A DNA stretch of 64,000 nt from an uncultured Candidatus Saccharibacteria bacterium (GCA_964367745.1 CAYIYK010000002.1:4447-68446), one strand, 5' to 3'. Positions 4,392-27,330 are shown, numbered from the stretch's first letter. Made by a program: numbers and translations. The notes: generated by a model from the letters alone, not told the origin.

Positions 4392-4551
4392 GAAAATTCT
4401 TTATTAATATCTTATAGTCTTCATCTTTTAAAATAGGTCTCTTTTGTTGTGTGTACAAAGTTCCGACGATCGAAGAAAACACCCCAAGGATAAGTAAGGA
4501 GAGGAGACTAATATACAGAATCGTTTCAATTAGTGAAAAACCTTTATTCAT
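4384..4551 (-). CDS. Unannotated 55-aa mini-prepilin (MNKG|FSLIETILYISLLSLLILGVFSSIVG...)
   Basis: I translated the 4551->4384 minus-strand frame by hand: ATG at 4549-4551 (rc), stop TAG at 4384-4386 (rc). It carries a perfect class III signal (KG-FSLIE, Glu at +5) and overlaps the end of the upstream large pilin gene by about 8 nt. It is below the 60-aa cutoff of the ORF track. Confidence 0.5.
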   Translation of the reverse strand: MNKGFSLIETILYISLLSLLILGVFSSIVGTLYTQQKRPILKDEDYKILIKNFHD

Positions 4552-5848
4552 TCTTTTTTAGAAATAAGAATCCACTACTGTCCCCTGTTGCAAAGAAAAT
4601 ATTGTTATTATCGCAGACCATTTTGACTGGACTTGAACCTAGCCCGATATCAGATACTTTATTCATCGACTCAGTATCGAGTACTTGGAATTCTTTACCA
4701 TTATTATGAGTTAGTGTAAGAACATATTTGTCTCTTAGCAATAATCCATATACTCCTCCTGCAATATCTTTCGATTTCATGGGAGTAGATGTGGGAAAAA
4801 TAAATAGTTCATGATTTGCTTGAACATTAAAACCTCCAACTGTTCTACCTAGTGCAATAGCACTTTCAAATGATTCTAGTATTTTACCTTCTTGGGTTTG
4901 CCAACCTGATGGAGAGAATGAATTTATTAATATTGGATTATTAGGATTTGAAACGTCCAACACTCTCATTTGTTTCTCATCGGATGAAGCGATGTAAGCT
5001 TTATTATCGATAACCAAAATATCATTTATTAAAGTATTAGTCTCAAAACTTCCTACAACTACAGGATTATACGGATCTTGTACTGACACTATGGATAGTT
5101 CATAACCATTCCATTTCTCAGTACCAAGATAAATATACCCCTTTGAATAATGTATTGACGAAGCGAATGGAGGAGTTGTGCTTGATGTTGGTAAAGGTAG
5201 TTTAATCTGCGAAATCAATTTTGGATTGAACCTATCGTGTATATCAAGTACCTGTAATTGATTTATTGTGCTTGCTTGAGCCAAGTATACATAAGGTCCA
5301 ACCACTTCAAGTGAGGATACTCCAGGCCCAGTATTTATTGATGAAATAAGCTTAATACTATTAATGTCATTTACATCAAAAATAAAGAAATCACTCTTGC
5401 TTGATATACTCGAATCAGCAGATAAATAGACAATATTGTTTCTTACCTCAATGTCGGTACTAAGATTTGATATACCTATATCAATATTGTTTTGACGTAA
5501 ATTATAATCTTTAAAATCAAATTTTAATTTTGGATCACAATAGGTCTTTCCCCACGAATCTACAAAGTTTGTTTTTGAGATACTAAATAATTTATTAAAA
5601 AATATCTTAGTATAATTCCCATAATAAGTATCCTCGAGATTGGTAATATTTAAAATATCTTTAGACAAAGCTTCCATAGTATTTAGTTCCTCTATAGACC
5701 ATAACTTCATTTTAGGTATTGAAGAATTAAGAGTAAAAGTTGTTATTGTAAACAGAACAAAGAGCGAAAAAGAAATCATGATTTCTACAGTCAGGAACCC
5801 TTTATTTGATTTGATAAATTTATTTCGAAATATGATTGGTGATTTCAT
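4544..5848 (-). CDS. Large prepilin-like protein (minor pilin/tip-adhesin candidate) with repeated beta-propeller-like (LVIVD-type) segments
   Basis: N-terminus MKSPIIFRNKFIKSNKG|FLTVEIMISFSLFVLF matches the G-F-x-x-x-E prepilin motif. Repeated segments such as LVIDNKAYIASSDEKQMRVLDVSNPNNP, VYLAQASTINQLQVLDIHDRFNP and IYLGTEKWNGYELSIVSVQDPYNP look like propeller blades. Start adjusted from 5887 to the internal Met. Confidence 0.55.
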   Translation of the reverse strand: MKSPIIFRNKFIKSNKGFLTVEIMISFSLFVLFTITTFTLNSSIPKMKLWSIEELNTMEALSKDILNITNLEDTYYGNYTKIFFNKLFSISKTNFVDSWGKTYCDPKLKFDFKDYNLRQNNIDIGISNLSTDIEVRNNIVYLSADSSISSKSDFFIFDVNDINSIKLISSINTGPGVSSLEVVGPYVYLAQASTINQLQVLDIHDRFNPKLISQIKLPLPTSSTTPPFASSIHYSKGYIYLGTEKWNGYELSIVSVQDPYNPVVVGSFETNTLINDILVIDNKAYIASSDEKQMRVLDVSNPNNPILINSFSPSGWQTQEGKILESFESAIALGRTVGGFNVQANHELFIFPTSTPMKSKDIAGGVYGLLLRDKYVLTLTHNNGKEFQVLDTESMNKVSDIGLGSSPVKMVCDNNNIFFATGDSSGFLFLKKNE

Positions 5849-6896
5849 ATACAGGCAGAATGATAGATAGAGCAATAGAACCGACAATTAACCCCATTAA
5901 GACCATAAGTACAGGTTCGATAAGTGAAGAGAATCTTTTAAGAACGTTATCTATATCTTGTTCAAAAATCCGTGAGCAATGACCGAACATCTCTCCCAGA
6001 TTTCCTGATTTCTCTCCGAGAGACAACATATCGATTAGGATAGTTGGGAAAAAGTCTTTATGTTTATTTATAGAATTCGACAGTGATATACCCTTTATTG
6101 AATCGTTATATATTCCTTCATATATTATTTTATAAAACAAATTGTTAGTTGATTCTTTATAGAACAATAAAATATCAGTTAGTCCTTTGCCGGAGGATAA
6201 AAGCATTTCCCCCATCCGGCATGCTGATATCATATCGTTTGTAACAATATAGTTTGATAATATTGGAATTTTGGTAATAATTTTCTGAATCTTTAGGCGA
6301 ATAAATTCATATTTTTTAAACAAAAAATTGAATGATATAGATAATAGTACGAGTAGAATCACAACCACAACTCCCTTTGAAATCAGAAAATAATATATAG
6401 ATTGAACTATCCTAGTTATTAACGGTAGTTGTATATTTAGACTTGAGAGTAGAGGTATTATCTTAGGAAATATATAAAGGATGAGAAATAACGTCATTAG
6501 TATAGTAGCGACGACTATGAACGATGGGTAAACTAGTGAGCTGATGATTTTTTTCTTAATATCATTTTTCTTTTCTAGAAACAAATAAGCTTGGTTTAGT
6601 GATTGAGACAATCTTCCACCCTCTTCACCGTTTTTAATGAGTACGATCAGTAGATGATCAAATCTTAATCCGAGGTTCTTAATACTTCTAGCAAGTGGCA
6701 TACCCTTCTCAAGATCAGAAATTATATGAGAATAGACTTCCTTTCTTTTTATATTTTTATCTATATTTCTCATCACATAAAGAGATTCAACCAACGAAGT
6801 ATTTGATTCAAGTAATATAGACAACCTTTGAGCAAAAAATATTTGATCGGATAGATTAAAAGAATTATTTTTAATTTTATTTATTTTATTATTCAT
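5820..6896 (-). CDS. pilC: Type IV pilus assembly platform protein PilC (GspF family)
   Basis: Polytopic membrane protein with two GspF-like repeats; its ends overlap pilB and the pilin gene, indicating an operon. Confidence 0.75.
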   Translation of the reverse strand: MNNKINKIKNNSFNLSDQIFFAQRLSILLESNTSLVESLYVMRNIDKNIKRKEVYSHIISDLEKGMPLARSIKNLGLRFDHLLIVLIKNGEEGGRLSQSLNQAYLFLEKKNDIKKKIISSLVYPSFIVVATILMTLFLILYIFPKIIPLLSSLNIQLPLITRIVQSIYYFLISKGVVVVILLVLLSISFNFLFKKYEFIRLKIQKIITKIPILSNYIVTNDMISACRMGEMLLSSGKGLTDILLFYKESTNNLFYKIIYEGIYNDSIKGISLSNSINKHKDFFPTILIDMLSLGEKSGNLGEMFGHCSRIFEQDIDNVLKRFSSLIEPVLMVLMGLIVGSIALSIILPVYEITNHISK

Positions 6897-8025
6897 GTAG
6901 TATTCTCAATATTTCGTCTTGAGTAGTAATTCCCTTTTCTACCTTTTCCATCCCATCCTCGTACATAGTTCTCATTCCTTTGCTTTTTGCATATCTAGAA
7001 ATCTCATTCATCGGTGTTCTAGACATTATGTATTTCCTTAATTCATCATCTATTACAAGAGTTTCAGAGACAACAACTCTTCCCCTAAAACCCAAATCTC
7101 CGCATTCTCGGCACCCGCAACCAGCCCCTTTGCATTTTCCGCAGATCTTTCTCACTAGCCTTTGGGCAATAACTAAAGAAAGAGTTGAAGCAACTAGATA
7201 GGGGTCTATACCCATATCTATTAGCCTCAAAATCGCACCGAGAGATGAATTCGTATGTAGAGTAGATAGAAGTAGATGACCTGTTAAAGAAATATTCGTG
7301 GCTATCTGTGCAGTTTCTGTATCTCTAATTTCTCCGACCATTATGATATCTGGATCTTGTCTGACTATTGATCTAAGACCATTAGCAAAATTTATTCCAT
7401 GTCTAGTCTGAATCTGTATTTGTCTTACTTCTGGTATCGCATACTCTATCGGATCTTCTAAGGTTATTATTGAATTCTTTCCATTTGATAATAGCGAAAG
7501 CAAGGTATATAAGGTTGATGTCTTACCTGATCCAGTAGGTCCAGTTACAAGCACCATTCCCTGGTGATACGACAGACAACCGACTATTCTATCAATGTCA
7601 TGTTCTGAGAATCCCAGATCTCCAAGTTTTGGTATATCACTATCACTTCTTAATATTCTCATTACTGCATTTTCACCATGATGAGTTGGTATTATCGACA
7701 CTCTTATATCACAATCACAAATATTTTTGGCAAATCTAAACCTCCCATCTTGTGGTACAAAATGTATATCCGTTCTAAGTCCCGACAAAACCTTTATTCT
7801 AGATATGAGCTCGTCGTGAGATATATCCTGTAAACTATCTATATAAGTTAATATCCCATCGATTCTAAACTTAATTACTACACTATCCTTTGTAGGATCG
7901 ATATGTATATCAGAAGAATTCCTATAGTAAGCATAAGTAATAATAGAATCGACGAGCTCAACTATCGACCTTATATCATGCAATGTTTTTTCATTTTCAG
8001 TTATTTTATATTGTTTTTCTTGCAT
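6889..8025 (-). CDS. pilB: Type IV pilus assembly ATPase PilB/GspE family
   Basis: Walker A motif GPTGSGKTST, Asp box, Walker B, and a tetracysteine motif CGKCKGAGCGCRECGDLG. Start taken at MQEKQ (ATG at 8023-8025 rc) rather than the ORF-track 8058. Confidence 0.85.
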   Translation of the reverse strand: MQEKQYKITENEKTLHDIRSIVELVDSIITYAYYRNSSDIHIDPTKDSVVIKFRIDGILTYIDSLQDISHDELISRIKVLSGLRTDIHFVPQDGRFRFAKNICDCDIRVSIIPTHHGENAVMRILRSDSDIPKLGDLGFSEHDIDRIVGCLSYHQGMVLVTGPTGSGKTSTLYTLLSLLSNGKNSIITLEDPIEYAIPEVRQIQIQTRHGINFANGLRSIVRQDPDIIMVGEIRDTETAQIATNISLTGHLLLSTLHTNSSLGAILRLIDMGIDPYLVASTLSLVIAQRLVRKICGKCKGAGCGCRECGDLGFRGRVVVSETLVIDDELRKYIMSRTPMNEISRYAKSKGMRTMYEDGMEKVEKGITTQDEILRILHE

Positions 8026-8046
8026 GCAAAAAGAATAACAACACTC

Positions 8047-8088
8047 AATAAAATTCAAATAAAATAATAATAAAATCCGGATAAAATT
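8047..8088. promoter_or_regulatory. Phased A-tract motif (ATAAAAT x4 at about 10-11 bp spacing) immediately upstream of pilB; related copies at 26616-26657 and 34408-34450
   Basis: Copies compared by eye: ATAAAATTCAAATAAAATAATAATAAAATCCGGATAAAAT versus ATAAAATCTATTTAAAATCTAAATAAAATTGGAATAAAAT versus ATAAAATCCATATAAAAACAGAATAAAATTGAAATAAAAA. Confidence 0.35.
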
Positions 8089-11337: not shown

Positions 11338-12357
11338 ATGACTCCCGCAAATACAAATCCCCCTGCCGGCGCGCCCCCGAATCCGTGGGTTACAGCTGCT
11401 GCCGGAGCACAACCTCCGACACCAACTCAAACTGGTAATCCTCCTGCTAACTCCGGAGGAACTGGATCAACCCCACCCACACCAACTCAAACAAGCAATC
11501 CACCGACCAATCCTGGTACGACTGGATTGACCCCTCCAAACCAACCTACGCAACAACAGACCCCAACTCGTTGGGAGAGAACAAAATCGTTTGTAGGAAG
11601 ACACCTTAATAAGTTTTTGATTACCTTGTCCGTAATCTTACTTATTGGGGTTCTAGTGGTCCTTGGTAAGAAACTCTGGAACCATTACCATCAAGAAGAT
11701 GAATCGACCACGGCAACAATGGTTGACAGACAAATTAAGGAAGAACGAGATGAGCTAAGGAGACAGGTTCGTCTTCAAATCATTGAGCAATCTCGTCTAA
11801 CAAACGAAGTCGCAGAAATACAGAAGGCTATGGATAGTTTGGTAGATAGATTTGCCAGCTACAAGAAAAATGTAGAGTCACAGACGAACACTTCGCCTAC
11901 TCAACCGACGAATCAGTCGGTGATTCAAAAAGAATTACCAAAAAATGTCGGTTCCGGCCTCGTCACTGTGAATGACAATCACGGTATTATAGAAATCACA
12001 GTCAAGAATGGTAACGGCGAAAGAAGTGTAATAACATCACAAGGCCCAGACAAGGCAGAGGATATGATTCCAAACCTTGCTGAGTCAACAGGGACTGAAA
12101 GTCCAATCACTACAGACAAGTCAGTGCCGCCAGGCGGAAATGGTATCAGGTACTACCTTCCAAAAGGATGGTCGATGAATTACAGATACTTTTGTTCTCA
12201 AGAAGACTTCGAGACCTTTGTAAACAAAGGAACTCGAGAAGTTCCTAAATGGGAGGCTACAGACGTTTCAAGCGATGGAAAGTCCGAATCCCTTTGGATT
12301 CGGAACCTATCACGAGGAAGTGTTAAGTTTACATTCACGCTAAAGCCTGCTGAATAG
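11338..12357 (+). CDS. Membrane-anchored protein with a Pro/Thr-rich tandem-repeat N-terminus and a coiled-coil; hypothetical
   Basis: Repeats PPTPTQTGNPPANSGGTGS and TPPTPTQTSNPPTNPGTTG, then the TM helix FLITLSVILLIGVLVVL, then a coiled-coil region. Confidence 0.55.
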   Translation: MTPANTNPPAGAPPNPWVTAAAGAQPPTPTQTGNPPANSGGTGSTPPTPTQTSNPPTNPGTTGLTPPNQPTQQQTPTRWERTKSFVGRHLNKFLITLSVILLIGVLVVLGKKLWNHYHQEDESTTATMVDRQIKEERDELRRQVRLQIIEQSRLTNEVAEIQKAMDSLVDRFASYKKNVESQTNTSPTQPTNQSVIQKELPKNVGSGLVTVNDNHGIIEITVKNGNGERSVITSQGPDKAEDMIPNLAESTGTESPITTDKSVPPGGNGIRYYLPKGWSMNYRYFCSQEDFETFVNKGTREVPKWEATDVSSDGKSESLWIRNLSRGSVKFTFTLKPAE

Positions 12358-12563: not shown

Positions 12564-13514
12564 ATGAATAAAACTAAATTATTTTTGGTGATTATGCTGT
12601 CCATCTCAGTATGGGCAATACTATTTGTAACCATTTTCTTTATCGGAATGGTTGCAAAAAAAGGAGGTATCGGTTTAACAGTACCTTTCATATTGTCAGG
12701 GGTAGCCTGGACATTATGGTACTTCTTCGTTGGTGGATACAAACACTTCTGGATTAATCCGGAATCAGATACTGCAGTAATACTACAAGACTACTTTCAG
12801 ACACCTCCAAAGTCACTGAAGGATTCTGAGGTAACCGGACCACTTTTTGTCCCCAAAGGCCAAGAAGCCGTGTTTACCGGTATAAATCCAAAGTTCCCTT
12901 GGCAAATACCTGTCGGCAATCCTATATCACTCAAAACAGTGTCACCATTCGAAGACACAACAGTGGCAAGTGACAAGGGTGGTGTTAGATACTTGATTGG
13001 GTTCAAGGTATTGCTTTCACCCGTAAGGAGTGAGTACTTACCAAGATTCCTACTTACTGACGACAAAAATGCTGGTGATTACTTCAAGAGTGAGATCGGA
13101 AAAGCAATCCGATCTGCGTTTGAAAATGAAGAAGATGGCGATGTGATAGTCAAGAACCACCAGGATTTTACCAAAAAGTATATCGAGCCATTATTCGGTG
13201 GTCTGAGTGAAATTTGTAATGAAGAAAACCGATATGGAAGGTTTAGTAATAGCCCTTTCATCGTAAGTGTACAACGACATCCAGATGATCAGGATGTTGC
13301 TCAGATTCCAACAATCATCAAAGAAATATCTTCGGGTGTTGATGAACTTACAAAGAAAGGTATACCATCTGGACAAGTCACACCACTAATCATGGCGGCT
13401 TTGGGCCAGAGAGTACAATTGGAAAACATAAGTGTCGACATGGGAGGAAATAAACCCAAAGACAGTTCAACGATAAATCCACTACCCTTAGCAGGTAAAA
13501 GGAGAAAGAAGTAA
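12564..13514 (+). CDS. Hypothetical membrane protein (two N-terminal TM helices plus a soluble domain)
   Basis: ORF with hydrophobic N-terminus and GC content above background. Confidence 0.55.
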   Translation: MNKTKLFLVIMLSISVWAILFVTIFFIGMVAKKGGIGLTVPFILSGVAWTLWYFFVGGYKHFWINPESDTAVILQDYFQTPPKSLKDSEVTGPLFVPKGQEAVFTGINPKFPWQIPVGNPISLKTVSPFEDTTVASDKGGVRYLIGFKVLLSPVRSEYLPRFLLTDDKNAGDYFKSEIGKAIRSAFENEEDGDVIVKNHQDFTKKYIEPLFGGLSEICNEENRYGRFSNSPFIVSVQRHPDDQDVAQIPTIIKEISSGVDELTKKGIPSGQVTPLIMAALGQRVQLENISVDMGGNKPKDSSTINPLPLAGKRRKK

Positions 13515-13515
13515 T

Positions 13516-13947
13516 ATGGAAACTGTTGCAAAAATAATTGGTTCGTTAATACTCAGCCTGCTGTTACTGTTTGGTATTTACACATACCGAACCAGTGACA
13601 AGGACGCTGAGGGTGGAGTAACCTCCTCCCCAACCCAAATCAAGTTCGGGGTGATGCAAATCATCACCGTCAACAAGATTACACCTGTAGAGGTGGAAAT
13701 CTTTGATGGTGAGAACCGGTCAGAAGTAGTTATTGGTGCAATGGATGAAAAGACGCCGTACACCTATTACTACAACCGTGGGTTGTCGAACGAGGACAAA
13801 GGTCTCGTTCCAGCCCACAAGGACTGGAATAGACTCGGATTTAAACCGAATCTTCAAAAACCAGGTATGGTGAAAGTCGAACTTTCACTACCACCAGACG
13901 CTCCGATGGAGAGCGCGCAGTTGTACTACATTATCAAGAAAAAATAA
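13516..13947 (+). CDS. Hypothetical protein with N-terminal TM anchor, coupled to the upstream gene
   Basis: The TAA of the upstream gene is followed 1 nt later by this gene's ATG. Confidence 0.5.
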   Translation: METVAKIIGSLILSLLLLFGIYTYRTSDKDAEGGVTSSPTQIKFGVMQIITVNKITPVEVEIFDGENRSEVVIGAMDEKTPYTYYYNRGLSNEDKGLVPAHKDWNRLGFKPNLQKPGMVKVELSLPPDAPMESAQLYYIIKKK

Positions 13948-13960
13948 TGCGTACACAAAA

Positions 13961-13990
13961 AGGGACCCACGAGGTCCCTTTCTTTTTTAT
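13961..13990. terminator. Bidirectional Rho-independent terminator shared by convergent operons
   Basis: Stem agggacc / ggtccct with loop cacga, flanked by an A-run and TTTCTTTTTT. Confidence 0.8.
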
Positions 13991-14001
13991 ATATTATTGA
14001 A

Positions 14002-14316
14002 TTAAAGGAATGGATCAGGAACTTCTAGGGTATTTGAAATAAGTCTAATTATTCCAAAAGCAGATAACATTATAAACATTCCAATAACTCCCCATATTAT
14101 GCTGTTCTTACCATTTGTTCTTTCTTCTGAACCCTCCTCATTCGCTATCATCTTTACGATACCGTAAGTAAATACAACAAACGCTCCAAAGAATACAACA
14201 CCGATTATAGGATTTATGATATTTTCAGAAATCTTTGCTATCAAACCACTAACTGTGGGGTTGGACATTATTTTCGATGCAGATTGTGCATTCGCTGTTT
14301 TTACCAAATCAAACAT
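14002..14316 (-). CDS. VirB2/TrbC-like small pilin-type protein (paralog 6 of 6): N-terminal leader plus two TM helices
   Basis: Hairpin topology of two hydrophobic helices separated by a charged loop (EEGSEERTNGKNS). Confidence 0.4.
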   Translation of the reverse strand: MFDLVKTANAQSASKIMSNPTVSGLIAKISENIINPIIGVVFFGAFVVFTYGIVKMIANEEGSEERTNGKNSIIWGVIGMFIMLSAFGIIRLISNTLEVPDPFL

Positions 14317-14317
14317 A

Positions 14318-14689
14318 TTAGTTTGGAACTGTTGGAGGACGAGGAAGTTTAATATTATCTACTGTAGTAGGTTGTGCTGGTTGACCAAATTTAAATGAAT
14401 TCGTAAGTAGGAATACCAATCCCCAAATAGAAAGTATTACGAAAAGTCCTATAACTCCATAAAGTATAGATTGTCCTCCCTTCTTTCGAGCTTCTTCATC
14501 ATCTGCACCTAGAACTAGATACTTCACAACACTAACTATAATCCAAAGTACTGCAAGTGATATTGCAATCTTAATAATAAGGTCACCGATATTCGTTGCC
14601 TTTTGTGCAACTGAGTCAATATCTGTAAGTGTTTGTGCGAATGCAAATACTGGTGTAGATGCAAGTACAAATGCTATAAGTTTCTTCAT
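14318..14689 (-). CDS. VirB2/TrbC-like small secreted two-TM protein (paralog 5)
   Basis: Signal peptide MKKLIAFVLASTPVFAFA|Q; TM1; loop GADDEEARKKGGQS; TM2. About 85% identical to the next paralog. Confidence 0.45.
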   Translation of the reverse strand: MKKLIAFVLASTPVFAFAQTLTDIDSVAQKATNIGDLIIKIAISLAVLWIIVSVVKYLVLGADDEEARKKGGQSILYGVIGLFVILSIWGLVFLLTNSFKFGQPAQPTTVDNIKLPRPPTVPN

Positions 14690-14772
14690 AAAAATATAAT
14701 AATAATTGATTAATAGTAACGTAGGAATTATAACAACAATATATTTTATCTACAAATAGGTATGTGGATATA

Positions 14773-15198
14773 CTATTTTCCTGGATATGGACCGTTTACA
14801 CCTGGAATAAGAGGTCCTCCATCGACACCTCTAGGTGATGGCGAGGTTCCACCATCTATTCTTACACTATCAAAACTAGGTCTTTGGGTAGTCGTAAATC
14901 TGAATGAATTTGTAAGTAGTGATACTAAACCCCAAATCGACAAGATCACAAAAAAACCAATAACTCCATAAAGTATAGATTGTCCTCCCTTCTTTCGTGC
15001 TTCTTCATCATCTGCACCGACTATAAGATACCTGACCACACTCACAACAATCCAAAGTACAGCAAAAGCAATAGCAAGCTTGATTATAAGATCACCAATA
15101 TTTGTTGCTTTTTGTGCAACACTATTTATGTCTCTTAAAGTTTGAGCAAATGATATACTCGGCAATAATGTTAATAGTAAAATAATTATTTTTTTCAT
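14773..15198 (-). CDS. VirB2/TrbC-like small secreted two-TM protein (paralog 4) with a Gly/Pro-rich C-terminal tail
   Basis: Signal peptide MKKIIILLLTLLPSISFA|Q; same GADDEEARKKGGQS loop; tail PSPRGVDGGPLIPGVNGPYPGK. Start adjusted to the internal Met. Confidence 0.45.
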   Translation of the reverse strand: MKKIIILLLTLLPSISFAQTLRDINSVAQKATNIGDLIIKLAIAFAVLWIVVSVVRYLIVGADDEEARKKGGQSILYGVIGFFVILSIWGLVSLLTNSFRFTTTQRPSFDSVRIDGGTSPSPRGVDGGPLIPGVNGPYPGK

Positions 15199-15202
15199 AT
15201 TT

Positions 15203-15580
15203 TTATTCTGGATTTGTAATAGTTCCACTTTGACCTCCTGTACCTGGTATACCTATATCTTTGAGTGCTGCAGGTTTTTGGTTTTCAAGATCGAATGTAT
15301 TCTTCAACAATGCAACCAATCCCCAGAATGAAAGAATCACAAAAAAACCAATAACACTAAAAAGTACGTATTTACCTGCTTCTACCTTATCCTTTTCTGT
15401 AAAGAAATATAGATAAACATTCCATACGAATGTAACTACAGCAAAAGCAATTATTAGTCCTAGTCCAATGTTCAAATAATCAACCACAATTGAAGCTATA
15501 TATTTTAAATCCTTCCCTACTGCAAAAGTGATGCTTGGTAGTAATGATATTAATGCAATTCCAATTTTTATTTTATTCAT
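15203..15580 (-). CDS. VirB2/TrbC-like small secreted two-TM protein (paralog 3)
   Basis: Signal peptide ...SITFA|VG; two TM helices; tail GIPGTGGQSGTITNPE. Confidence 0.4.
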   Translation of the reverse strand: MNKIKIGIALISLLPSITFAVGKDLKYIASIVVDYLNIGLGLIIAFAVVTFVWNVYLYFFTEKDKVEAGKYVLFSVIGFFVILSFWGLVALLKNTFDLENQKPAALKDIGIPGTGGQSGTITNPE

Positions 15581-15588
15581 ATTATTAA

Positions 15589-16029
15589 TTATTTTAATAG
15601 TTCTTCATTTACTAATCCTGATGATGCAAGAGTATTTCTTACAACCTCTACGATCACCTTGGAACTAATAAGTATCGCAGTGCCTATAATAGCTGCAGTA
15701 AACCATTCTTTTGCTTTATCAATCTCTCCTGGATTACCTTGAGCCATTACTAGTTTGAATCCTACCCAGATAAAAGTAAAAACAGCAACAATAGATCCTA
15801 TAAAGATAGCGAAATCAACCAAAGATAATAATAGATCTTTTAGGTTTTTTGCTTTTATTGGGTTTTCAAGCTTTATCATTTTTGCTGGTGGATTTGATGT
15901 ATTAGATCCTGTTCCAGGTGGAACTGGTGTAGTTGCTCCTGTTCCAGGAGGAACCTGTGCAAAAGCAAATGTTCCAGTAAATGATACAAGTATAGCTATC
16001 AAAGTAGAAAATATTATTTTTTTATTCAT
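15589..16029 (-). CDS. VirB2/TrbC-like small secreted two-TM protein (paralog 2) with a Pro/Gly/Thr-rich N-terminal region
   Basis: Signal peptide ...FAFA|QVPPGTGATTPVPPGTGSNTSNPP, then two TM helices. Confidence 0.4.
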   Translation of the reverse strand: MNKKIIFSTLIAILVSFTGTFAFAQVPPGTGATTPVPPGTGSNTSNPPAKMIKLENPIKAKNLKDLLLSLVDFAIFIGSIVAVFTFIWVGFKLVMAQGNPGEIDKAKEWFTAAIIGTAILISSKVIVEVVRNTLASSGLVNEELLK

Positions 16030-16034
16030 TATAT

Positions 16035-16457
16035 TTATTTACCAATAAAAATATCGAAACCGGAATTCTTTTCAACAAACCAATCGACTACAGTTATCAC
16101 TGCTATCCAAGCTACAAGCATAATTATAAACCCATAAGCCACCGATTGGAAGATGCTCCTTGCCGTCTCTATCTTACCTGGGACTCCAGTCATATACATG
16201 ATACCGGCGTAAGCAAAAGCTACTGTTGCAATAGGTATAGTTATGTAGAATAACCAACTAATAGCAGACCTTACAGTTTCCATAAGTGCATTGAAGTCAC
16301 AGACTTTTTGTCTTTCTGTTTCTCCCGGAGTAATAACTCCATCACACTTAACAAGACCACTATAATCTAGTTTCTCTTGAGCAAAACTGAAGCTTGGTAG
16401 TATTGATATTGCCAAGATTATAATAAGTGCGATTTTTTTAATATTTTTATTTATCAT
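16035..16457 (-). CDS. VirB2/TrbC-like small secreted two-TM protein (paralog 1), contains a Cys pair
   Basis: Signal peptide ...SFSFA|QEK; CDGVITPGETERQKVCD; two TM helices. Confidence 0.4.
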   Translation of the reverse strand: MINKNIKKIALIIILAISILPSFSFAQEKLDYSGLVKCDGVITPGETERQKVCDFNALMETVRSAISWLFYITIPIATVAFAYAGIMYMTGVPGKIETARSIFQSVAYGFIIMLVAWIAVITVVDWFVEKNSGFDIFIGK

Positions 16458-17752
16458 TGTGATGTTAATGAAAGATTTAATTCATCACTAGCCTTCGACA
16501 GTGCATTGTATAGACTAGATCTACCACTTGTTACACTTTCAACTAAGTCTGTAAATACTGTATTTGATTTTTGTGCATTTGTATCAAGCCAACCTTTTGA
16601 AATAAGTGCTGAATCTAGAAATATAGACATGTATGGATCTGTAGAACCACTTGCCACAGCATCTCTTCTTACAGATGGTAAATATGTAGCTTTTGACAAT
16701 AGTGATGATGCTTCTGTTGATGTGAGGATTTTTATTATTTGATAAACAGAATTTTGATCCTTTGTACTTCTTGATATTGATAGACCATACATCTTGCCAT
16801 AAGTAGCTCTATTCTCTCCATTTTTACCCTTCCATTGTGGCATTGGTGCAACATCGTAATCTATGTTTGGATTCTTTTCTCTCAATTCGCCTATTTCTGA
16901 AGCAAAACCAAAATATGTTGCTAGGTTACCTGATAAGAAACTATTTTTTGACGATGGAAGTGATCTATTCCAAGAATAATATTGACCTAGAGGATTTGAA
17001 AATTGTACATAAAAAGCTAGAGCGGGTGAAGAAGTCTTCGTACCATTGAACTGACTGTCCCCAATAGCACTCACTGTACCCTCTCCACCATTGTAAGTTA
17101 CAGGGTTACCCTTTTGCAAAAATAGTGTACTTAGAAGTTCTCTTGCATGATTTATATTTCTAAATTCTCCCATAGCTATTGCACTTCTTCTAATATTTGA
17201 ATTCTGATCTTTCTGATTTATTCTCGTTATCAAGTTTGAAAAATCATCCCAATATGCAGGATATTTTGCTATTCCAGCATTTGTAAGCATTGTTCTGTTC
17301 CAATACATAACCATTGGATCTACGATAAAAGGAATCGCTCTAGCGCCAGTGCTTGTAATATAAAGATCTGCTTGTGGAATATAAGTATTTTGGAAATCTC
17401 TTTGTGTTAAAACTGTATTTGGAATCTCTATTATCTTATCGCTAAAACCAAGTATTTCATCTTGAGAGATTAGTATTGCATCTGGACCCTTTCCTCTAGC
17501 TAGCTCTTCTATGTACTGTCTTCTAAAATCAGAGCTTGGTATCTCAATATAATTTACAGATATTTGTGACGGCCTGTTTATATTTATATTTGTTAGAAGT
17601 TCATTAAAAGTACTTTCTGGGAATGTACCCCAAATAGTAATTGATGGGAGCGATGTAATTGTACTATCACCTTTAAAAGTCGCGAATGCTACTACACCTG
17701 CTATTATAAAAACTACGAATATTGATGTAAGTATTATTTGAAATTTGCTCAT
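16454..17752 (-). CDS. Membrane-anchored extracellular solute-binding-protein-like protein (ABC SBP family 1-like), orphan
   Basis: N-terminal TM anchor followed by ITIWGTFPE...LARGKGPDAILISQDE, an SBP-like architecture. No ABC permease or ATPase is adjacent. Its start overlaps paralog 1 by an ATGA. Confidence 0.4.
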   Translation of the reverse strand: MSKFQIILTSIFVVFIIAGVVAFATFKGDSTITSLPSITIWGTFPESTFNELLTNININRPSQISVNYIEIPSSDFRRQYIEELARGKGPDAILISQDEILGFSDKIIEIPNTVLTQRDFQNTYIPQADLYITSTGARAIPFIVDPMVMYWNRTMLTNAGIAKYPAYWDDFSNLITRINQKDQNSNIRRSAIAMGEFRNINHARELLSTLFLQKGNPVTYNGGEGTVSAIGDSQFNGTKTSSPALAFYVQFSNPLGQYYSWNRSLPSSKNSFLSGNLATYFGFASEIGELREKNPNIDYDVAPMPQWKGKNGENRATYGKMYGLSISRSTKDQNSVYQIIKILTSTEASSLLSKATYLPSVRRDAVASGSTDPYMSIFLDSALISKGWLDTNAQKSNTVFTDLVESVTSGRSSLYNALSKASDELNLSLTSQ

Positions 17753-17753
17753 T

Positions 17754-18278
17754 TTAGATTTTTTTAAATATCATACCATAATGATGGTCTCCAGCGTCGA
17801 ATGTCTTCTCGATTTTGAAACCATTTTTTTCAAAAAGACCTTGGGCAAGAGATTGTGGCACTGCTTCAGCTGGCTTAAAACTACTATCCTCATTCCAATC
17901 TATGACCATCAATTTTCCTCCTGACTTTAGTAATCTTTTTATCTCTAATGCTACATTGTCTCTGTTTTTTGGATCAATTTGGAATAAAGTATTAGAAAAT
18001 ACAACACGCTCAGCTATAGCTTCGCGAACCTTTGTACCACCAAGCTTCTCTACATCGCCATTTATTACTTCTATATTATGTAGACCCGCACCCATAGCAG
18101 AGTTTTTTATTCTAGTTAAAAGATCTTGCTGTATATCTACAGCATAGACTCTTCCAGATGGACCTACCTTTTTTGCTAGCTCTATAGCATAAAAACCAGA
18201 ACCTGATCCAATATCAACAATCTTCATACCATGTTCAACACCAAGTTCTGCAATATTTTTTATTGGATCAGAAAACAT
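17754..18278 (-). CDS. Class I SAM-dependent methyltransferase
   Basis: Motif I VDIGSGSGFYAIELA; 174 aa. Confidence 0.7.
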   Translation of the reverse strand: MFSDPIKNIAELGVEHGMKIVDIGSGSGFYAIELAKKVGPSGRVYAVDIQQDLLTRIKNSAMGAGLHNIEVINGDVEKLGGTKVREAIAERVVFSNTLFQIDPKNRDNVALEIKRLLKSGGKLMVIDWNEDSSFKPAEAVPQSLAQGLFEKNGFKIEKTFDAGDHHYGMIFKKI

Positions 18279-18337
18279 AAGAATATTATATCATGAATTA
18301 TCTTTAGTTATAAACACAAGAAGTTGAAAGTGGTTTC

Positions 18338-18596
18338 CTCCAAGACTCGGAAGTTTTCTTGCTCGAAAACTTCCTATTCCGGCACCGTCGTGCCTACATA
18401 GTCTTGTCGAAAACCCTTTCAACTTCCTGTGCCAACATTTTTCTTTGCCTAGTCACCGTGCCAATAAGGAGCGTTTCTTCAATATTAAATTCAGTATCAT
18501 CAAGATAAAAGATAGAATTGTTTTTGACAAGACTGTGGATGTGCGACGGCACAGAAACAGGGAGTTTTTTACCAAAAAAACTCCCGAGTCTTGGAG
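18338..18596. other. Intergenic element bounded by an 11-bp perfect (about 15-bp imperfect) inverted repeat, with internal hairpins; candidate structured RNA or MITE-like element
   Basis: Left arm cctCCAAGACTCGGaag (18337-18353); right arm ctCCGAGTCTTGGagaag (18581-18599). Internal perfect 10-bp hairpin ggaagttttc/gaaaacttcc (18348-18373) and hairpin GGGAGTTTTTT-acca-AAAAAACTCCC (18560-18585). Confidence 0.3.
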
Positions 18597-18619
18597 AAGA
18601 CAATTCTATCTTTTCTGTT

Positions 18620-21091
18620 TTATAAGCATATCAAACTAGCCAGTGAATCCCCATCTCTTAACTTCATAACTCTAACTCCTTGAGTAGATCTTCCTAGAGT
18701 TGGAATTTCATTTAGATCAACACGTATTACCTGACTCTTCTTTGACATAGCTACCATTTCCTTTATATCTTCTGTTACAACCTTCGCTGCGATTAGCGGA
18801 CCAGTCTTCTCGGTAACATTCATAGTTAGAATACCTGAACCTCCTCTATTTTGGACCTTGTATTCATCAAGCTTTGTTTGTTTTCCATATCCATTTTCAC
18901 CCATAACGAATAGTTTTGGATTCTTTGCATCTTTTGCTACAACATCAGCACTGATCACTGCATCATCTTTTCCAAGTTTTATTATTCTAACCCCTGCAGC
19001 ATTTCTACCCATTTCTCTTACATCTTCTGCTTCAAATCGTATTGATTGACCATCTCGTGTTGCTATAACTATAGTATCTGGTTTTGAAACAAATGAAGCT
19101 GATATCAATTCATCTTTATCTTCCAAAGTAATAGCGATAAGTCCCGATCTTCGAACATCATGAAAATGTTTCGCTGAACTCTTTTTACCTGTTCCATTCT
19201 TCGTAACCATCATAAGAGCAAGATTCTCTGCTTCCTTTTTATTCTTTGGCATTGGTAGAATAGATGTTATCTTTTCTCCATCAGAAAGTGATAGGAAGTT
19301 CATAACAGACTTTCCTCGAGTGGCTCTCTTTCCCTCTGGAAGATCGTACATTTTTATTTGATATGCTTTTCCTTTATCAGTAAAGAATAGTAGATCATTG
19401 TGTGCATTCGCATATACAAGATGAGTTATGAAGTCCTCTTCTTTTGTATCCAAATCGACAACTCCAACACCACCACGTTTCTGTTGTCGATACTCATCTG
19501 GATTTGTTCTCTTTATATAGCCTCCCTTTGTAAGTACGAGTACACTTTCTTCATCTGGTATCAAATCTTCAGGATTAAAGTCTTTCAAACCATGCTTGAT
19601 AAGACGAGTTCTTCTCTCATCTCCATACTTTGCTTTTATTTCAGTCAATTCGTCTTTTATTATTCCTCTTACTTTCTTTTCACTACCTAGAATTTCTTTT
19701 AATTTCTCTATTAACTCTTGTACTTCTGCCAATTCATCAAGAACTTTCTTTCTTTCAAGGCCTGCGAGCTTTTGTAGTCTCATTTCAAGAATTGCTGTAG
19801 CTTGTTTCTCTGAGAATTTAAACTTCTTCATCAAGTTTGCATGTGCTTCTACAGCGTCTTTTGATGCACGGATAAGAGTGATGATTTCATCGATATGGTC
19901 TAGGGCCTTTTTTAGACCTAGCAAGATATGTTCTCTTTCTTCAGCTTTGTTTAGATCAAAAGTTGTTCTTCGTCTTATAACCTCTACTCTATGAGTAACG
20001 AATTCTTCTAGAATAGATTTTAGAGAAAGGGTTTGTGGAACACCATTTACTAGTGCAACGGTGTTTACATGGAATGTATCTTCTAGTTGAGTGTGTTTGT
20101 ATATATAGTTTAAAACCTTCTCTGGATATGCACCGTTCTTAAGATCGATAACGATTCGCATCTCTTTATCTGATTCATCTCGAAGGCCCTTTATACCTTC
20201 AATAGCTTTGTCTCTTACTAGATCTGCGATTTTTATGATAAGTTCTGATTTGTTAACACGATAAGGAATAGAGGAAATAATTATTTGAAATTGTCCCTTT
20301 TTATCTTCTACTATTTCTGCTTCTCCACGAACAACAATACCTCCACGTCCTGTAGAATATGCATGTTGAATATCCTTTTCTCCATACATAATACCTCCTG
20401 TTGGAAAGTCTGGACCTTTTATAAACTGCAGTAGATCGTCTGTTGTTGCATTTTTGTTTTCTATCAAGTGCATTGTTGCATCAACAACTTCATTTAAGTT
20501 GTGGGGTGCAATGTTTGTCGCCATACCTACAGCAATACCTAGTGTTCCATTCAAAAGAAGATTTGGAACTGCTGTTGGAAGAACGACTGGTTCTTTTCTA
20601 GTACCGTCATAGTTTGGTCGGAAATCTACCGTATCTTTTTCTATATCTCTTAAAAGTTCTGCAGCTGGACGTGACATCTTCGCTTCTGTATATCGCATTG
20701 CCGCTTGAGGATCTCCATCAATGTTACCGAAGTTTCCTTGTCCAAGGATAAGCTGATATCTCATCTTAAAGTCTTGAGCCATACCAACCATAGAATCATA
20801 AACCGCAACGTCACCGTGAGGGTGATAGTTACCAAGCACATCTCCCACTACTACAGCAGACTTTCGAAACTTCGCAGAGGCTGTAAGACCTTTTTCATGC
20901 ATAGCATAAAGGATTCTTCTGTGTACAGGCTTCAAACCATCACGCACATCTGGTAGTGCACGCGCTGTAATAACTGACATAGCATAGTCGAGATATGACT
21001 CTCGCATTTCAGCTGTAATATTTCTAGCGACGATTCCAAGAGCTGGATCTCGTGGTTCAGGTTCAGCAGTAATTTCAGGTTTTTTTGCCAT
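18620..21091 (-). CDS. gyrA: DNA gyrase subunit A
   Basis: [28 protein letters not shown] and the C-terminal beta-pinwheel repeats. Confidence 0.95.
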
Positions 21092-22578: not shown

Positions 22579-23253
22579 ATGCAAGAAAATATATGGGAAA
22601 AAGAGTACAAAAACCCCACTCTAGTAAGTCTCAGTGATATTCCGGCACAATGTGTGCGCGATTTTGTGCGCTTCTTAAGAAAAGAAAGAAGTGTAGAGAT
22701 TGATAATAAAAATATACTAGACCTTGGTTGTGGTAATGGAAAAAATAGTCACTATATAGCTGAACAAGGTTTAAATAATAAAATCACTGGAATCGAAATA
22801 TCCGAAACCGCTCTTTCATTTGCAAAGAATCTAGTCCCAAACGGGAATTTTATAAAACAAAGTATTGGAACTCCTCTCAACTTCCCTGATTCCTCTTTTG
22901 ATATTATTTTAGATGTTACAAGCTCAAATTCTTTAAATGAAAATGAACGCGATATTTATTTAAAAGAAATTCACAGACTTATAAAGCCTGATGGATACTT
23001 TTTTCTAAGAACACTATGTAAAGATGGAGACAAAAACGCTCAAAGTCTACTAAAAACAAATCCAGGCAAAGAATATGATACTTATATTATGCCTTCACTT
23101 GGTCTTACTGAGAGAGTTTTTTCAAAAGAGGATTTGATAAAAATGTATTCAATATTTGGCGAACCTTTATATTTAAAAAAAGAGACTCACTATACAAAGT
23201 TCAACAATCAGTCATATAAGCGGAACTTTTGGGTTGGGGTGTGGAAAAAATAG
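22579..23253 (+). CDS. Class I SAM-dependent methyltransferase
   Basis: Motif I ILDLGCGNGKNSHYIAEQG. Confidence 0.7.
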   Translation: MQENIWEKEYKNPTLVSLSDIPAQCVRDFVRFLRKERSVEIDNKNILDLGCGNGKNSHYIAEQGLNNKITGIEISETALSFAKNLVPNGNFIKQSIGTPLNFPDSSFDIILDVTSSNSLNENERDIYLKEIHRLIKPDGYFFLRTLCKDGDKNAQSLLKTNPGKEYDTYIMPSLGLTERVFSKEDLIKMYSIFGEPLYLKKETHYTKFNNQSYKRNFWVGVWKK

Positions 23254-23801: not shown

Positions 23802-24644
23802 TTAAGGCCATTCTTTTAAGCCATAATCCCCATAATCACCAAGATAGATATATTTACGAACCAAGTCAAAAAGCTTATTATCTATATCCTTAGGGTCTCT
23901 TGCGTGACGTGCAAAAGGGTAAGTACAGTAATCTACCATTTGGGTACCATTAACATTATCTTGTTTTGTAAAGAATAGGATTTGTTCATTTATATTTTTG
24001 AATCGATCTTTTGAACAATAGAAAGTTCCATTATTTCTTGCATTAGTTAATACTCCTTGTATCTTTCTACTTTCTTTATTTCCTCGTGTTTCGAAGATGA
24101 TTTTTGCTGTATCATTATTAAGAAAATGACCTATTCTTTCAAGGACCCAATCAACATTGCGTAAATATAAATCTCCAGGATTGTATTTCTGACCAGAAAT
24201 ACTTTCAAATTTTTCAGCTTTTTTCAAAAGTTTCATTTTATTAATGGATGAGGATATGATAGTTACAGAACTTTTTTCCAAAGTCTCAATCATCTTTTCT
24301 TTAAAGTAGGTATAATTATCTTCATTGAGTAGTTCTTTAAAAATACCGTCCTTCCTTCTTATTTCATTAGAATGAAAATGTATATCTCGGTTATGCCAAA
24401 ATTTTTCCTTAATTTCATCCATTGATGGGACCATTAGTTCCTGATAGACTTTTCTATCAACGATTAGAGCTGTGACTGTCATAACTGGAAAAACAGTAGG
24501 ATGATCATACTTTTTAATATCTTTATGCATGAATGGGTCTCCAGTTTCATCAATAAAAACCAAGTATCTTTCTGGTACCTTAAAAATCTCATTTTCTTTC
24601 AGATCACATTTCTGTATTTGCATCTTAGTGGCTGTATTATACAA
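23802..24644 (-). CDS. DUF3800-family protein
   Basis: N-terminal YLVFIDETGDP matches the DUF3800 signature (x-IDESG). Confidence 0.6.
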   Translation of the reverse strand: MYNTATKMQIQKCDLKENEIFKVPERYLVFIDETGDPFMHKDIKKYDHPTVFPVMTVTALIVDRKVYQELMVPSMDEIKEKFWHNRDIHFHSNEIRRKDGIFKELLNEDNYTYFKEKMIETLEKSSVTIISSSINKMKLLKKAEKFESISGQKYNPGDLYLRNVDWVLERIGHFLNNDTAKIIFETRGNKESRKIQGVLTNARNNGTFYCSKDRFKNINEQILFFTKQDNVNGTQMVDYCTYPFARHARDPKDIDNKLFDLVRKYIYLGDYGDYGLKEWP

Positions 24645-26081: not shown

Positions 26082-26594
26082 TCATTTACGGACATATTTT
26101 ATTTTTTCTTTAGTGTATTGATCTTCTAGATAATCGAAGAATTCTGAACCCAATACTTGGTATAACGATGAAGCATATTGTTTGTTGGGAAACAACATTT
26201 TTCCAAATTTACTCTTCTTTATTAGATAATCTACCAACTTTTTATAATCACCATCTCCAGATACGATGAGAACTTTATTAAAAACTTCTTGATCAACTAA
26301 TTTCTTCATAAGTTCGAAAATGATATCAGAATCTACATTTCCCTTCTTATTTCCTCTAAGAGTTTGTGAATGTTCTTTGAATAGTAGATTGAAACCAGCT
26401 TTCTCTAAATTTCTATATAAATCTCGTTCTTTCTCTGTCATATAGCCTATAAAATAATAAGCTTCCTTTACATGATATTTTTCAGTTAAATAAATTCTAA
26501 AACGAGTATGGTCTATAGACCATCCATTATCTCTTGTACCGAGATACAGATTTTGACCATCGATAAAAGCGATGTTTGATATTTTTTCATTCAT
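26082..26594 (-). CDS. NYN/LabA-like PIN-domain protein
   Basis: IAFIDGQNLY...DSDIIFELM...LIVSGDGDY. Confidence 0.65.
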   Translation of the reverse strand: MNEKISNIAFIDGQNLYLGTRDNGWSIDHTRFRIYLTEKYHVKEAYYFIGYMTEKERDLYRNLEKAGFNLLFKEHSQTLRGNKKGNVDSDIIFELMKKLVDQEVFNKVLIVSGDGDYKKLVDYLIKKSKFGKMLFPNKQYASSLYQVLGSEFFDYLEDQYTKEKIKYVRK

Positions 26595-26682: not shown

Positions 26683-27267
26683 TTACCCCGCATTAAACAC
26701 ACTCATAGCCTTCTCTCTCCCCTCTTTAATCAAAACTGGGATTATCTCTTCTACAGTCTTCCCCATCTTTTTTATCTCTTTCATTTCATCATCTTTAAAC
26801 TTACCCAATATAAATTTCTCTATCTTTTCATCTCCATGTGGAACTTTTGCATCACCTTTTGCGGTTTCTGGAGCAACACCAATTCTTATTCTTACAAAAG
26901 CTTCGGTCTTTACTGATTTTATTATTGATTCAATACCATTATGTCCTCCTGAACTTCGATTGTATGAAATTCGAATTTTCCCCATAGGTAAATTGAAATC
27001 ATCATAAATAACAACTAACTTTTCAGCTGCTTTTATACTTTTTACAAGACTCGCGACAGATTTCCCTGAATTATTCATAAAAGTATCTGGAGCAACTAGC
27101 TTTACTTTTTCTTTTCCTACTTTTATTTCAGAAATGTGAGCATTTATTTTTTTATCAAAAGAAAATTCTTCATCTGTTAACGATTGTAAAATAATTCTTC
27201 CGGTATTGTGACGAGTATTTTCATATTCTTCACCCGGATTACCCAAACCAACGATTATGTATGCCAT
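26683..27267 (-). CDS. pth: Peptidyl-tRNA hydrolase
   Basis: MAYIIVGLGNPGEEYENTRHNTG. Confidence 0.9.
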   Translation of the reverse strand: MAYIIVGLGNPGEEYENTRHNTGRIILQSLTDEEFSFDKKINAHISEIKVGKEKVKLVAPDTFMNNSGKSVASLVKSIKAAEKLVVIYDDFNLPMGKIRISYNRSSGGHNGIESIIKSVKTEAFVRIRIGVAPETAKGDAKVPHGDEKIEKFILGKFKDDEMKEIKKMGKTVEEIIPVLIKEGREKAMSVFNAG

Positions 27268-27330
27268 ATGACCATTATGTCACATACAAAAATCTTGTGT
27301 CAAACGAATATTGGCAGTACAATTATTCTA

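Follow-up and report, generated by a model that had tools for sequence, protein, structure and literature searches.

A 64-kb stretch of DNA from an uncultured Candidatus Saccharibacteria bacterium (GCA_964367745.1 CAYIYK010000002.1:4447-68446; this whole stretch, ~34% G+C, is called the window hereafter) raises the question of why six pilin-like genes in tandem should be encoded together with a methyltransferase and a membrane-anchored protein that resembles sugar-binding proteins. The operon occupies positions 14002-18278 on the minus strand and comprises eight tightly packed open reading frames (ORFs), in which the methyltransferase gene comes first, followed by the gene for the solute-binding protein (SBP)-like product and by the six small genes. 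The initial annotation had described these eight ORFs, together with a 1-nt gap between the methyltransferase and the SBP gene and an ATGA overlap at the end of the latter, and the ORF coordinates confirm all of this. It had also described the genes as packed with overlapping ends; the packing is indeed tight, but the only overlapping junction is the 4 nt shared by the SBP stop codon and the start of the first pilin gene, the remaining spacers being of 1-8 nt, save for one 83-nt gap at 14690-14772 that contains a conserved promoter-like sequence. We lean towards reading the operon as a pilin module that belongs to a type IV secretion system (T4SS) of Paceibacteria and has become detached from the VirB4 core, with a sugar-binding ectodomain coupled to the first pilin, pilin A.

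The organization of the operon in related genomes bears directly on this question. Relatives of the SBP are encoded at 543 places in a species-representative genome collection, and we analysed the best 80 of these (44-92% identical), plus four metagenome loci, using our own ORF calls and hidden Markov model (HMM) searches. Where at least 500 nt of DNA is available downstream of the SBP gene (73 loci), the next gene is a pilin gene in all 73, and where at least 2.7 kb is available (59 loci), five or more pilin genes follow in 57. Directly before the SBP gene, wherever there is enough upstream DNA, comes the methyltransferase gene (75/75); six of these loci were checked by hand, as the longest ORF called for the SBP there extended back across the methyltransferase gene. 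Searches begun from homologues of the last pilin reach the same operon, and precomputed Pfam labels on the neighbouring genes agree with its makeup. The gyrA gene usually lies upstream, at a distance that varies with insertions of up to ~7 kb, and the operon itself is never opened. Thus, the arrangement of methyltransferase, SBP and pilins is invariant across the relatives. One possibility raised at the outset was that the SBP might lack any co-conservation with the small genes; in fact, it accompanies them at all 73 loci, and in some relatives the two are fused. The proteins change at very different rates: the median identity to the window orthologue is 83% in GyrA and 60% in the methyltransferase, but 50% in the SBP and 39-49% in the pilins. 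The fast evolution of the envelope proteins of the operon is as expected for exposed proteins.

For all six small proteins, the best Pfam match is T4SS_pilin (PF18895). At a gathering score of 26.6 bits, four of them exceed the cut-off, namely those that we call class B (42.4 bits), class D (36.5 bits), class E (40.1 bits) and X, an extra copy of class D (42.0 bits), and a jackhmmer search started from any of the six, including classes A and C, leads to an identical set of 383 ORFs in the related loci. None of the window proteins reaches the cut-off of TrbC (PF04956, 27.9 bits), the best score being 19.5 bits and the E-value for class B being 1.2e-3. Among class B orthologues, PF18895 is found in 55 of 55 and TrbC/VirB2 in 50 of 55, with a best E-value of 5.5e-11, and of the five classes B is the nearest to the classical TrbC/VirB2 proteins. 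Hydropathy gives a leader and two hydrophobic helices in each of the six. The prediction that all six begin with a Sec leader stands for five genes, in which the leader is of Sec type and ends in (A/S/T)-F-A; class E has only a 10-residue leader, of a conserved short A-x-A type. An AlphaFold2 (AF2) model of class E contains helices at 20-58 and 64-96, with a predicted local distance difference test score (pLDDT) of 72; the shape of this hairpin is too generic for fold searches to discriminate, and a class E profile compared with the sequences in the PDB returned hydrophobic noise only (E ≥0.5). No match to the type IV pilin motif N_methyl (PF07963) was found in the six small proteins or in the SBP at E ≤1, although the type IV pilin encoded at 3436-3936 of the window does match. 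By profile membership and topology, the six can therefore be assigned to the VirB2/TrbC superfamily of two-helix pilins rather than to the type IV pilus pilins, as the initial annotation had proposed from their architecture. Published VirB2 arrays of Patescibacteria are defined by at least two PF18895 or PF04956 genes that are adjacent or have a single non-pilin gene between them (PMC12102498), and here there are six in tandem. Matches to DctQ, the small subunit of TRAP transporters, in 13 of 55 class B proteins were judged to be hydrophobic-helix noise and rejected, there being no DctM and no TRAP-type SBP. Seven relatives (L015, L016, L017, L018, L024, L028 and L038) have an extra PF18895-family match between gyrA and the methyltransferase gene on the divergent strand (jackhmmer E 1e-10 to 1e-26); the window is without such a gene, and the match in L015, which overlaps the methyltransferase gene on the opposite strand, may be spurious.

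The six genes are not interchangeable copies. Best-match assignment gives strict positional orthology, in which A, B and C are the first, second and third genes, D is the penultimate and E is the last. Class A (16035-16457, 140 amino acids) holds position 1 in 78 of 79 arrays and has a Sec leader ending SFA|Q and an external segment with two conserved cysteines ahead of the two-helix hairpin. In class B (15589-16029, 146 amino acids), the Sec leader is followed by an external N-terminal extension rich in Pro, Gly and Thr and then by the hairpin, while class C (15203-15580, 125 amino acids) carries its Gly/Pro/Thr-rich, low-complexity segment as a C-terminal tail behind the leader and hairpin. 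Class D (14318-14689, 123 amino acids) has a leader ending AFA|Q, the hairpin and a low-complexity C-terminal tail that ends in LPRPPTVPN. Class E (14002-14316, 104 amino acids) is tail-less, and its leader, MFDLVKTANA|Q in the window, is 10-15 residues long and ends in A-x-A across the orthologues; because it is conserved in this way, the short leader is not a truncation. The set of five is retained across at least 80 species, with its order fixed in at least 57, and the classes are ancient and position-specific.

Only class D has been duplicated again and again. A sixth gene is present in 18 of 65 arrays, and it is always a copy of class D located just before the long gap. In the window, this lineage-specific copy is X (14773-15198, 141 amino acids), which is 70% identical to D over 115 residues, with 78 of the first 100 residues and 69 of the 81 residues of the mature core (85%) in common; the ~85% identity first reported for the pair is thus that of the mature core. 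The tails of X and D differ. Across arrays, X and D of the same genome are between 47 and 99% identical, the 99% pair being that of L014, with a homogenised helical core and exposed ends that differ. In L006, an extra class D copy (3096-3398) ends after the loop as a 100-residue ORF that is 97% identical to the intact D and is followed by a 200-nt gap, and it looks like a recent duplicate in decay. The ongoing duplication and hypervariable tails noted at the start therefore hold for class D but not for the other four classes, and the idea of a reservoir of pilin subunits gives way to that of a fixed five-part set: judged by this positional orthology, the array is ordered rather than random.

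The SBP-like protein (16454-17752, 432 amino acids) belongs to family 1, that is, the carbohydrate type. It matches SBP_bac_1 at 7.6e-16 (59.4 bits) and SBP_bac_8 at 50.1 bits, and a profile of the protein and its homologues compared with the PDB gives as best match the mannooligosaccharide-binding protein MBP1 (4r9f, 1.1e-13, full length), along with many maltose and other sugar binders. The AF2 model (pLDDT 89.9) shows an N-terminal helix at residues 3-25, a stretch of ~10 residues of low confidence (residues 26-32 below a pLDDT of 50) and then a two-lobe fold, for which the top Foldseek match is again 4r9f, a mannobiose-bound structure, at 1.9e-23. Numerous aromatic residues are invariant (W41, Y68, W151, W168, Y259, W261, Y280 and W388). 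The word-indexed search found 1,623 relatives at E ≤1e-3, and an exhaustive search with a fusion protein as the query found 4,213 cluster representatives at E ≤1e-3, 1,067 of them at E ≤1e-30. Pfam scans of ~58 ORFs, mostly of at least 120 amino acids and spread across the 64-kb window, found no permease for a sugar ATP-binding cassette (ABC) transporter, and none was found within 9-10 kb on either side in the annotated loci L001, L003, L085 and L086; the sole ABC component detected in the window is a MacAB-like pair at 61418-63810. Thus, the protein has the sequence and fold of a carbohydrate-type SBP, and the cognate permease that is expected of the SBP of a family-1 ABC importer was found neither in the window nor in these four relatives. 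An SBP-related entry in another member of these bacteria, SEML1_0634 of Candidatus Southlakia epibionticum (Table S1, PMC10633639), is a second hint of non-transport roles for orphan binding proteins.

The N-terminus of the SBP is peculiar in its own right. In 73 homologues that are 53-92% identical overall, the protein starts with M-S-K-F-Q, K3, F4 and Q5 are invariant and F23-A24-T25 are invariant or nearly so, which is far more conservation than a plain signal anchor needs. These residues could be recognised by a partner, the co-transcribed methyltransferase being one example, or could mark a site of processing. We considered whether they might be the class III signal of a type IV pilin and rejected this possibility, as N_methyl does not match and M-S-K-F-Q lacks a Gly or Ala at position -1.

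In some relatives, the SBP and pilin A are a single protein. In three metagenome-assembled genomes (L025, L026 and L027), the SBP gene reads in frame into the first pilin gene, with no ambiguous bases (Ns), to give proteins of 560-568 amino acids that are 67-71% identical to each other. The junction alignment places the fusion point exactly at the signal-peptide cleavage point of the pilin, and what was once the signal peptide is now a linker of 20-35 residues that is not hydrophobic. The exhaustive search added two representatives of similar length, P0243 (586 amino acids) and P0247 (579 amino acids), both of which end in a class-A-like pilin that has the hairpin and the same two cysteines, and whose SBP parts are 46% and 39% identical, respectively, to P0105 over the matched stretches. 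There are thus fusions in three clusters or more, with SBP parts that share only 39-46% identity. Their topology is consistent, as an SBP domain on the outside is joined to the outward-facing N-terminus of a mature pilin. The pilins of F-type and VirB2-type pili have both of their ends on the outside and their loop towards the lumen, and an N-terminal ectodomain is thus topologically compatible with a pilus. That the fusion persists or recurs in divergent lineages is classical Rosetta-stone evidence for pilin A and the SBP-like protein acting as one unit.

The first gene of the operon (17754-18278, 174 amino acids) matches Methyltransf_31 at 5.5e-18, as well as Methyltransf_25 and Methyltransf_11, with generic partial matches only in NCBIfam, and its translation contains an intact S-adenosylmethionine (SAM)-binding motif, VDIGSGSG. 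It encodes a minimal cytoplasmic class I SAM-dependent methyltransferase. Being cytoplasmic, the enzyme can reach only those parts of the products that face the cytoplasm, namely the M-S-K-F-Q start of the SBP, the n-regions of the signal peptides and the inter-helix loops of the pilins, and it would probably modify one of these. In class E, a conserved D..AR..G motif is found in these loops. On the other side of gyrA lies another class I paralogue, of larger size (22579-23253, plus strand, 224 amino acids; Methyltransf_31/25/11), which is syntenic in relatives (L003 4170-4865, L061 4163-4837 and L086 432-1118).

Classes D and E have a conserved promoter of their own, which is probably regulated. 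The sole long spacer in the array always precedes class D, with X, where present, lying before it, and its median length across relatives is 85-92 nt. In the window, this gap contains, on the minus strand at 14727-14769, ATCCACA, 7 nt, TTTGTA, 17 nt and TATAAT. The hexamer TCCACA occurs in 51 of 63 orthologous gaps, its background frequency being 0.026 per 100 nt, and it lies 24-32 nt (mostly 29-32 nt) ahead of a -10-like TAtAAT or TACAAT, with a TTTGT-like -35 region between the two. ATCCACA alone is not significantly enriched in the window (14 matches for 8.3 expected), and only its combination with the -10 element is specific: this composite pattern occurs once in the 64 kb (14727-14768), and in 1.15 Mb of related loci, 42 of its 54 matches fall at the D gap. 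A further six, from six species, precede the methyltransferase gene by ~55 nt; the TCCACA box can also head the whole operon.

What, then, would such a pilin module work with? In Ca. Southlakia epibionticum, six PF18895 genes (SEML1_0014-0019) lie within a T4SS cluster and are essential by transposon sequencing (PMC10633639). From this precedent and from homology, it can be argued that the pilins described here are subunits of a VirB4-driven T4SS encoded elsewhere in the genome. The initial annotation had already suggested a distally encoded T4SS, which remains the most economical partner; in a published survey, pilins are located away from virB4 in ~40% of VirB4-positive Patescibacteria assemblies (PMC12102498). 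In a part of a published Table S1, VirB4 is scored as present in 19 of 20 Ca. Nomurabacteria and in 14 of 23 Ca. Taylorbacteria drafts.

Several observations weigh against this proposal. Domains of VirB4/CagE, VirB6/TrbL and VirD4/TraG, as had been noted over a shorter distance, and of relaxases are lacking from the ~58 ORFs scanned with Pfam over the 64 kb. In the same part of Table S1, 9 of the 23 Ca. Taylorbacteria drafts are scored VirB4-negative; such scores are weak evidence in drafts that are at least 50% complete, and the 'No VirB4' entry for C7867-002 is uninformative because only 206 coding sequences are annotated. This was the sole relative's genome to be traced in the published T4SS table, by its name, as none of the relatives' contig accessions had a match there. 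Two of the six pilins, classes C (23.2 bits) and A (22.2 bits), fall below the PF18895 cut-off. All of the loci come from one syntenic clade, with gyrA upstream and SPFH-type genes downstream, so that co-conservation is partly inheritance. Finally, the SBP keeps its own N-terminal hydrophobic helix, even in the fused forms, and if this helix is left uncleaved at the conserved F-A|T, then a fusion protein would be tethered by three membrane helices, an arrangement that suits a membrane-resident complex better than an extruded filament.

With these reservations, we infer a dependence on a T4SS, the formation of a filament and a target for the methyltransferase, and the following sequence of events can be envisaged. 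Sec/YidC would insert the pilins into the membrane, and signal peptidase I, for which the window contains a lepB gene (27208-27912), would trim them after A-x-A. A VirB4-type machine encoded elsewhere would then pull them out of the membrane to build a short heteromeric pilus or channel, in which D and E, having a promoter of their own and presumably a greater abundance, would be the bulk subunits and A, B and C would be low-copy initiator or adaptor subunits. Pilin A would dock the SBP-like ectodomain, or carry it in the fusions, and this ectodomain may bind a host-derived glycan and thus act as the tip adhesin or contact sensor of the secretion system. The duplicated D copies, with one polymerisation core and different exposed tails, could widen the host range.

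A neighbouring explanation is that these are T4SS pilins that never enter an extracellular filament and instead form the subunits of a membrane channel or stator, with the SBP as an outward sensor that gates secretion, much as ChvE tunes VirA in Agrobacterium. The family assignment and the conservation data fit this idea as well as they fit a pilus, and the N-terminal helix that is retained in the fusions favours a membrane-resident complex; ChvE-VirA and PrgZ offer general precedents. Reviews grant these pilins only the 'potential to elaborate conjugative pili' (PMC12857230). However, low-complexity and fast-changing tails exposed at the N- or C-terminus, and class D duplicates that differ in their tails, are expected of the subunits of a surface filament, and the operon has no sensor kinase, all of which makes this explanation unlikely in our opinion.

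It is similarly improbable, as we see it, that the operon encodes an envelope device that is complete without a VirB4-type T4SS, in which the SBP and the five kinds of hairpin form a surface scaffold concentrating the sugar binder, or a conduit for uptake, in the manner of the bindosome (PMC3047682). Such a device would account for the lack of T4SS genes in the 64 kb, for an operon that is always complete in itself, for the three membrane helices of the fusion proteins, for the unusual invariance of M-S-K-F-Q and the hydrophobic helix at the SBP N-terminus, and for the Ca. Taylorbacteria drafts that the part of Table S1 mentioned above scores as VirB4-negative, and the ATPase and platform genes of a type IV pilus lie only 6-10 kb away (5820-8058). 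On the other hand, the operon itself contains no ATPase or other source of energy, the small proteins are of VirB2 type and neither they nor the SBP carry the N_methyl motif, the VirB4-negative scores come from drafts of at least 50% completeness and are weak, and in the sole case studied experimentally, the homologous six-pilin array lies within a T4SS cluster and is essential along with it. A bolder form of the idea, which we find distinctly doubtful, is that the methyltransferase, the SBP and the five pilin classes make up a self-sufficient organelle, a scaffold or conduit of VirB2 hairpins that captures or imports host glycans without VirB4; if true, it would be a bacterial counterpart of the archaeal bindosome built from conjugative pilins.

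That the SBP is simply the binding component of an ordinary ABC importer with its permease elsewhere, and that it and the methyltransferase stand beside the pilins through inherited gene order only, would agree with its clear family-1 sequence and fold and with the fact that the sampled loci all come from one syntenic clade in which gyrA is also conserved nearby. Nevertheless, inherited order does not account for in-frame fusions in at least three clusters with SBP parts only 39-46% identical, for the 4-nt ATGA overlap with the first pilin gene, for outside neighbours that vary where the operon does not, or for a TCCACA promoter box in common, and the window and the four annotated relatives yielded no permease, so we regard this explanation as very improbable. 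Least credible of all, and rejected after a scan against PHROG, is the alternative initially offered that the six are secreted membrane-active peptides of a bacteriocin or holin kind exported with help from the SBP: they are small two-helix membrane proteins and one of them (14002-14316) has a marginal PHROG holin match (E 0.002), but the other five have none, their membership of T4SS_pilin and TrbC is significant, five classes in fixed order in at least 57 species are unlike the turnover of toxin and immunity genes, and the operon contains no immunity gene, ABC exporter, endolysin or phage gene.

The ends of the operon carry further candidate control sites. A promoter-like site on the minus strand at 18285-18314 (TTTATA, 18 nt, TATAAT, preceded by TG), recognised by a consensus scan and by reading the sequence, abuts the start codon of the methyltransferase gene and might serve as the promoter of the operon. 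Further upstream on the same strand, at 18502-18540, there is another such site, TTGTCA-17-TATCTT, with an ATCCACA box at 18534-18540. The spacer between gyrA and the methyltransferase gene (18279-18619, minus strand, 340 nt) also contains a terminator-like hairpin at 18560-18585, which comes after gyrA and before this box, and two more short hairpins, and it may be a long regulated leader; an Rfam search of 13800-18700, this spacer included, found nothing near any gathering score. At the other end, a terminator scan and the sequence itself point to a GC-rich hairpin flanked on either side by T runs (13959-13981) between convergent stop codons, which is likely to be a bidirectional terminator that closes the operon.

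Just downstream of this hairpin lie three convergent plus-strand genes (11338-12357, 12564-13514 and 13516-13947) that have no Pfam matches, hold the same place in many relatives and have a G+C content of 0.41 against ~0.34. The product of the first combines a Pro/Thr-rich N-terminus with a single membrane helix and a coiled coil. The second encodes a very divergent SPFH/Band-7 membrane protein of the prohibitin/stomatin type, as judged by a profile match to prohibitin in the PDB (1.2e-4), by Band_7 matches in 5 of 28 orthologues and by a precomputed Band_7 label in L085, and the third, which starts 1 nt later and encodes 143 amino acids, may be its NfeD/YbbJ-like partner. Type IV pilus genes, the sole secretion-related set that the Pfam scans of the window revealed, occupy 3436-8058 of the minus strand, with an N_methyl pilin (3436-3936), a beta-propeller protein, PilC (5820-6896) and a PilB/T-type ATPase (6889-8058), so that two kinds of pilin are near neighbours, 6-10 kb apart, in one genome. 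The rest of the window is mainly housekeeping, with gyrA directly upstream of the operon, an ileS-type tRNA synthetase, uvrABC, ftsAZ, rpsA, lepB, a sigma-70 factor and pentose-phosphate enzymes. A BRO-N protein (52927-53763), a DUF3800 protein (23802-24644) and an NYN-domain nuclease (26082-26594), all on the minus strand, are possible mobile or defence-type genes. The close homologues of the neighbouring genes are all from Patescibacteria, class Paceibacteria, in records named Ca. Taylorbacteria, Nomurabacteria or Paceibacterota.

Patescibacteria, the ultrasmall bacteria of the candidate phyla radiation, account for much of bacterial diversity and apparently have a life on other cells. A T4SS and six pilins are essential in their sole genetically tractable species, and published surveys have found no adhesin. 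An SBP-like ectodomain that is in one operon with the pilins, and sometimes covalently fused to one of them, is therefore a concrete candidate for a host-recognition module, and it is one that can be described as soluble and expressible. The present analysis also recasts the pilin arrays as five ordered subunit classes with a single variable class, rather than as random pools of paralogues, and the TCCACA promoter box provides a handle on their regulation.

Tandem pilin arrays, and their location away from virB4, are already known in Patescibacteria (PMC7427843, PMC10633639, PMC12102498, PMC12857230), so that the array is less of a novelty than it first seemed. In Saccharibacteria, a conserved array of 4-6 small Sec-secreted proteins was described in 2020 beside homologues of VirB4, VirB6 and VirB2 (PMC7427843), and a 2025 review treats these pilins as the sole exception to the absence of VirB2 from monoderm T4SSs (PMC12857230). 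Quinonero-Coronel et al. surveyed 3,035 genomes in 2025 using PF18895 and PF04956 and found VirB2-like genes in 1,948 VirB4-positive assemblies, near virB4 in 1,135 and away from it in 813, along with 441 arrays of 2-11 pilin genes in 383 assemblies, within which identity had a mean of 25% and a maximum of 54% (PMC12102498). The array described here resembles those of Southlakia, TM7x and the 441 surveyed in having 4-6 (range 2-11) divergent PF18895 proteins in tandem, each with a signal peptide and two helices, and some of those arrays are also away from virB4. It differs in lying outside any T4SS cluster, fixed behind the methyltransferase and an SBP that is sometimes fused to the first pilin, in its five positional classes and internal promoter, and in its X-D pair, whose identity of 70% here, and 99% in L014, exceeds the published maximum within arrays. 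The papers that we could search make no mention of the coupling to the methyltransferase and SBP, the fusions, the five classes, the internal promoter or such a high-identity pair, nor does any link the SBP to these pilins; the coupling with its fusions, the five-class architecture, the duplication of class D only and the TCCACA promoter thus appear to be new.

Compared with the TrbC/VirB2 pilins (PF04956) of diderm bacteria, the window proteins are alike in their leader, in their two helices with a short charged loop, in their small size and in the matches of class B orthologues, but they fall below the PF04956 cut-off, come from six genes and five classes instead of one major pilin, belong to a monoderm and have no adjacent virB gene. 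The leaders of TraA and VirB2 are long, whereas those in the window are short and of Sec type, or of only 10 residues in class E. The SBP shares its Pfam families and its fold with family-1 proteins such as CpMnBP1 (4r9f) and MalE at ~15% identity, yet it has no permease or ATPase nearby, is anchored by an N-terminal helix and is operonic with, and sometimes fused to, a pilin. The combination has partial parallels elsewhere. ChvE-VirA of Agrobacterium and PrgZ of pCF10 show that a periplasmic-binding-protein fold can inform a conjugation-type machine of molecules from a host or partner, and FimH and the bimodular type IV pilins of Streptococcus sanguinis show that a pilin module can bear a ligand-binding domain. 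To our knowledge, none of these is a family-1 SBP fused to a VirB2-type pilin, and ChvE and PrgZ are not encoded with pilin genes. The Sulfolobus bindosome (Bas) likewise brings together carbohydrate-type binding proteins on the surface of the cell and several small pilin-like membrane proteins (PMC3047682), but it is archaeal, uses class III type IV pilin signal peptides, which neither the SBP nor the six small proteins of the window carry, and is driven by a PilB/PilC-type motor, whereas the operon described here is built on pilins of VirB2 type and encodes no motor of its own.

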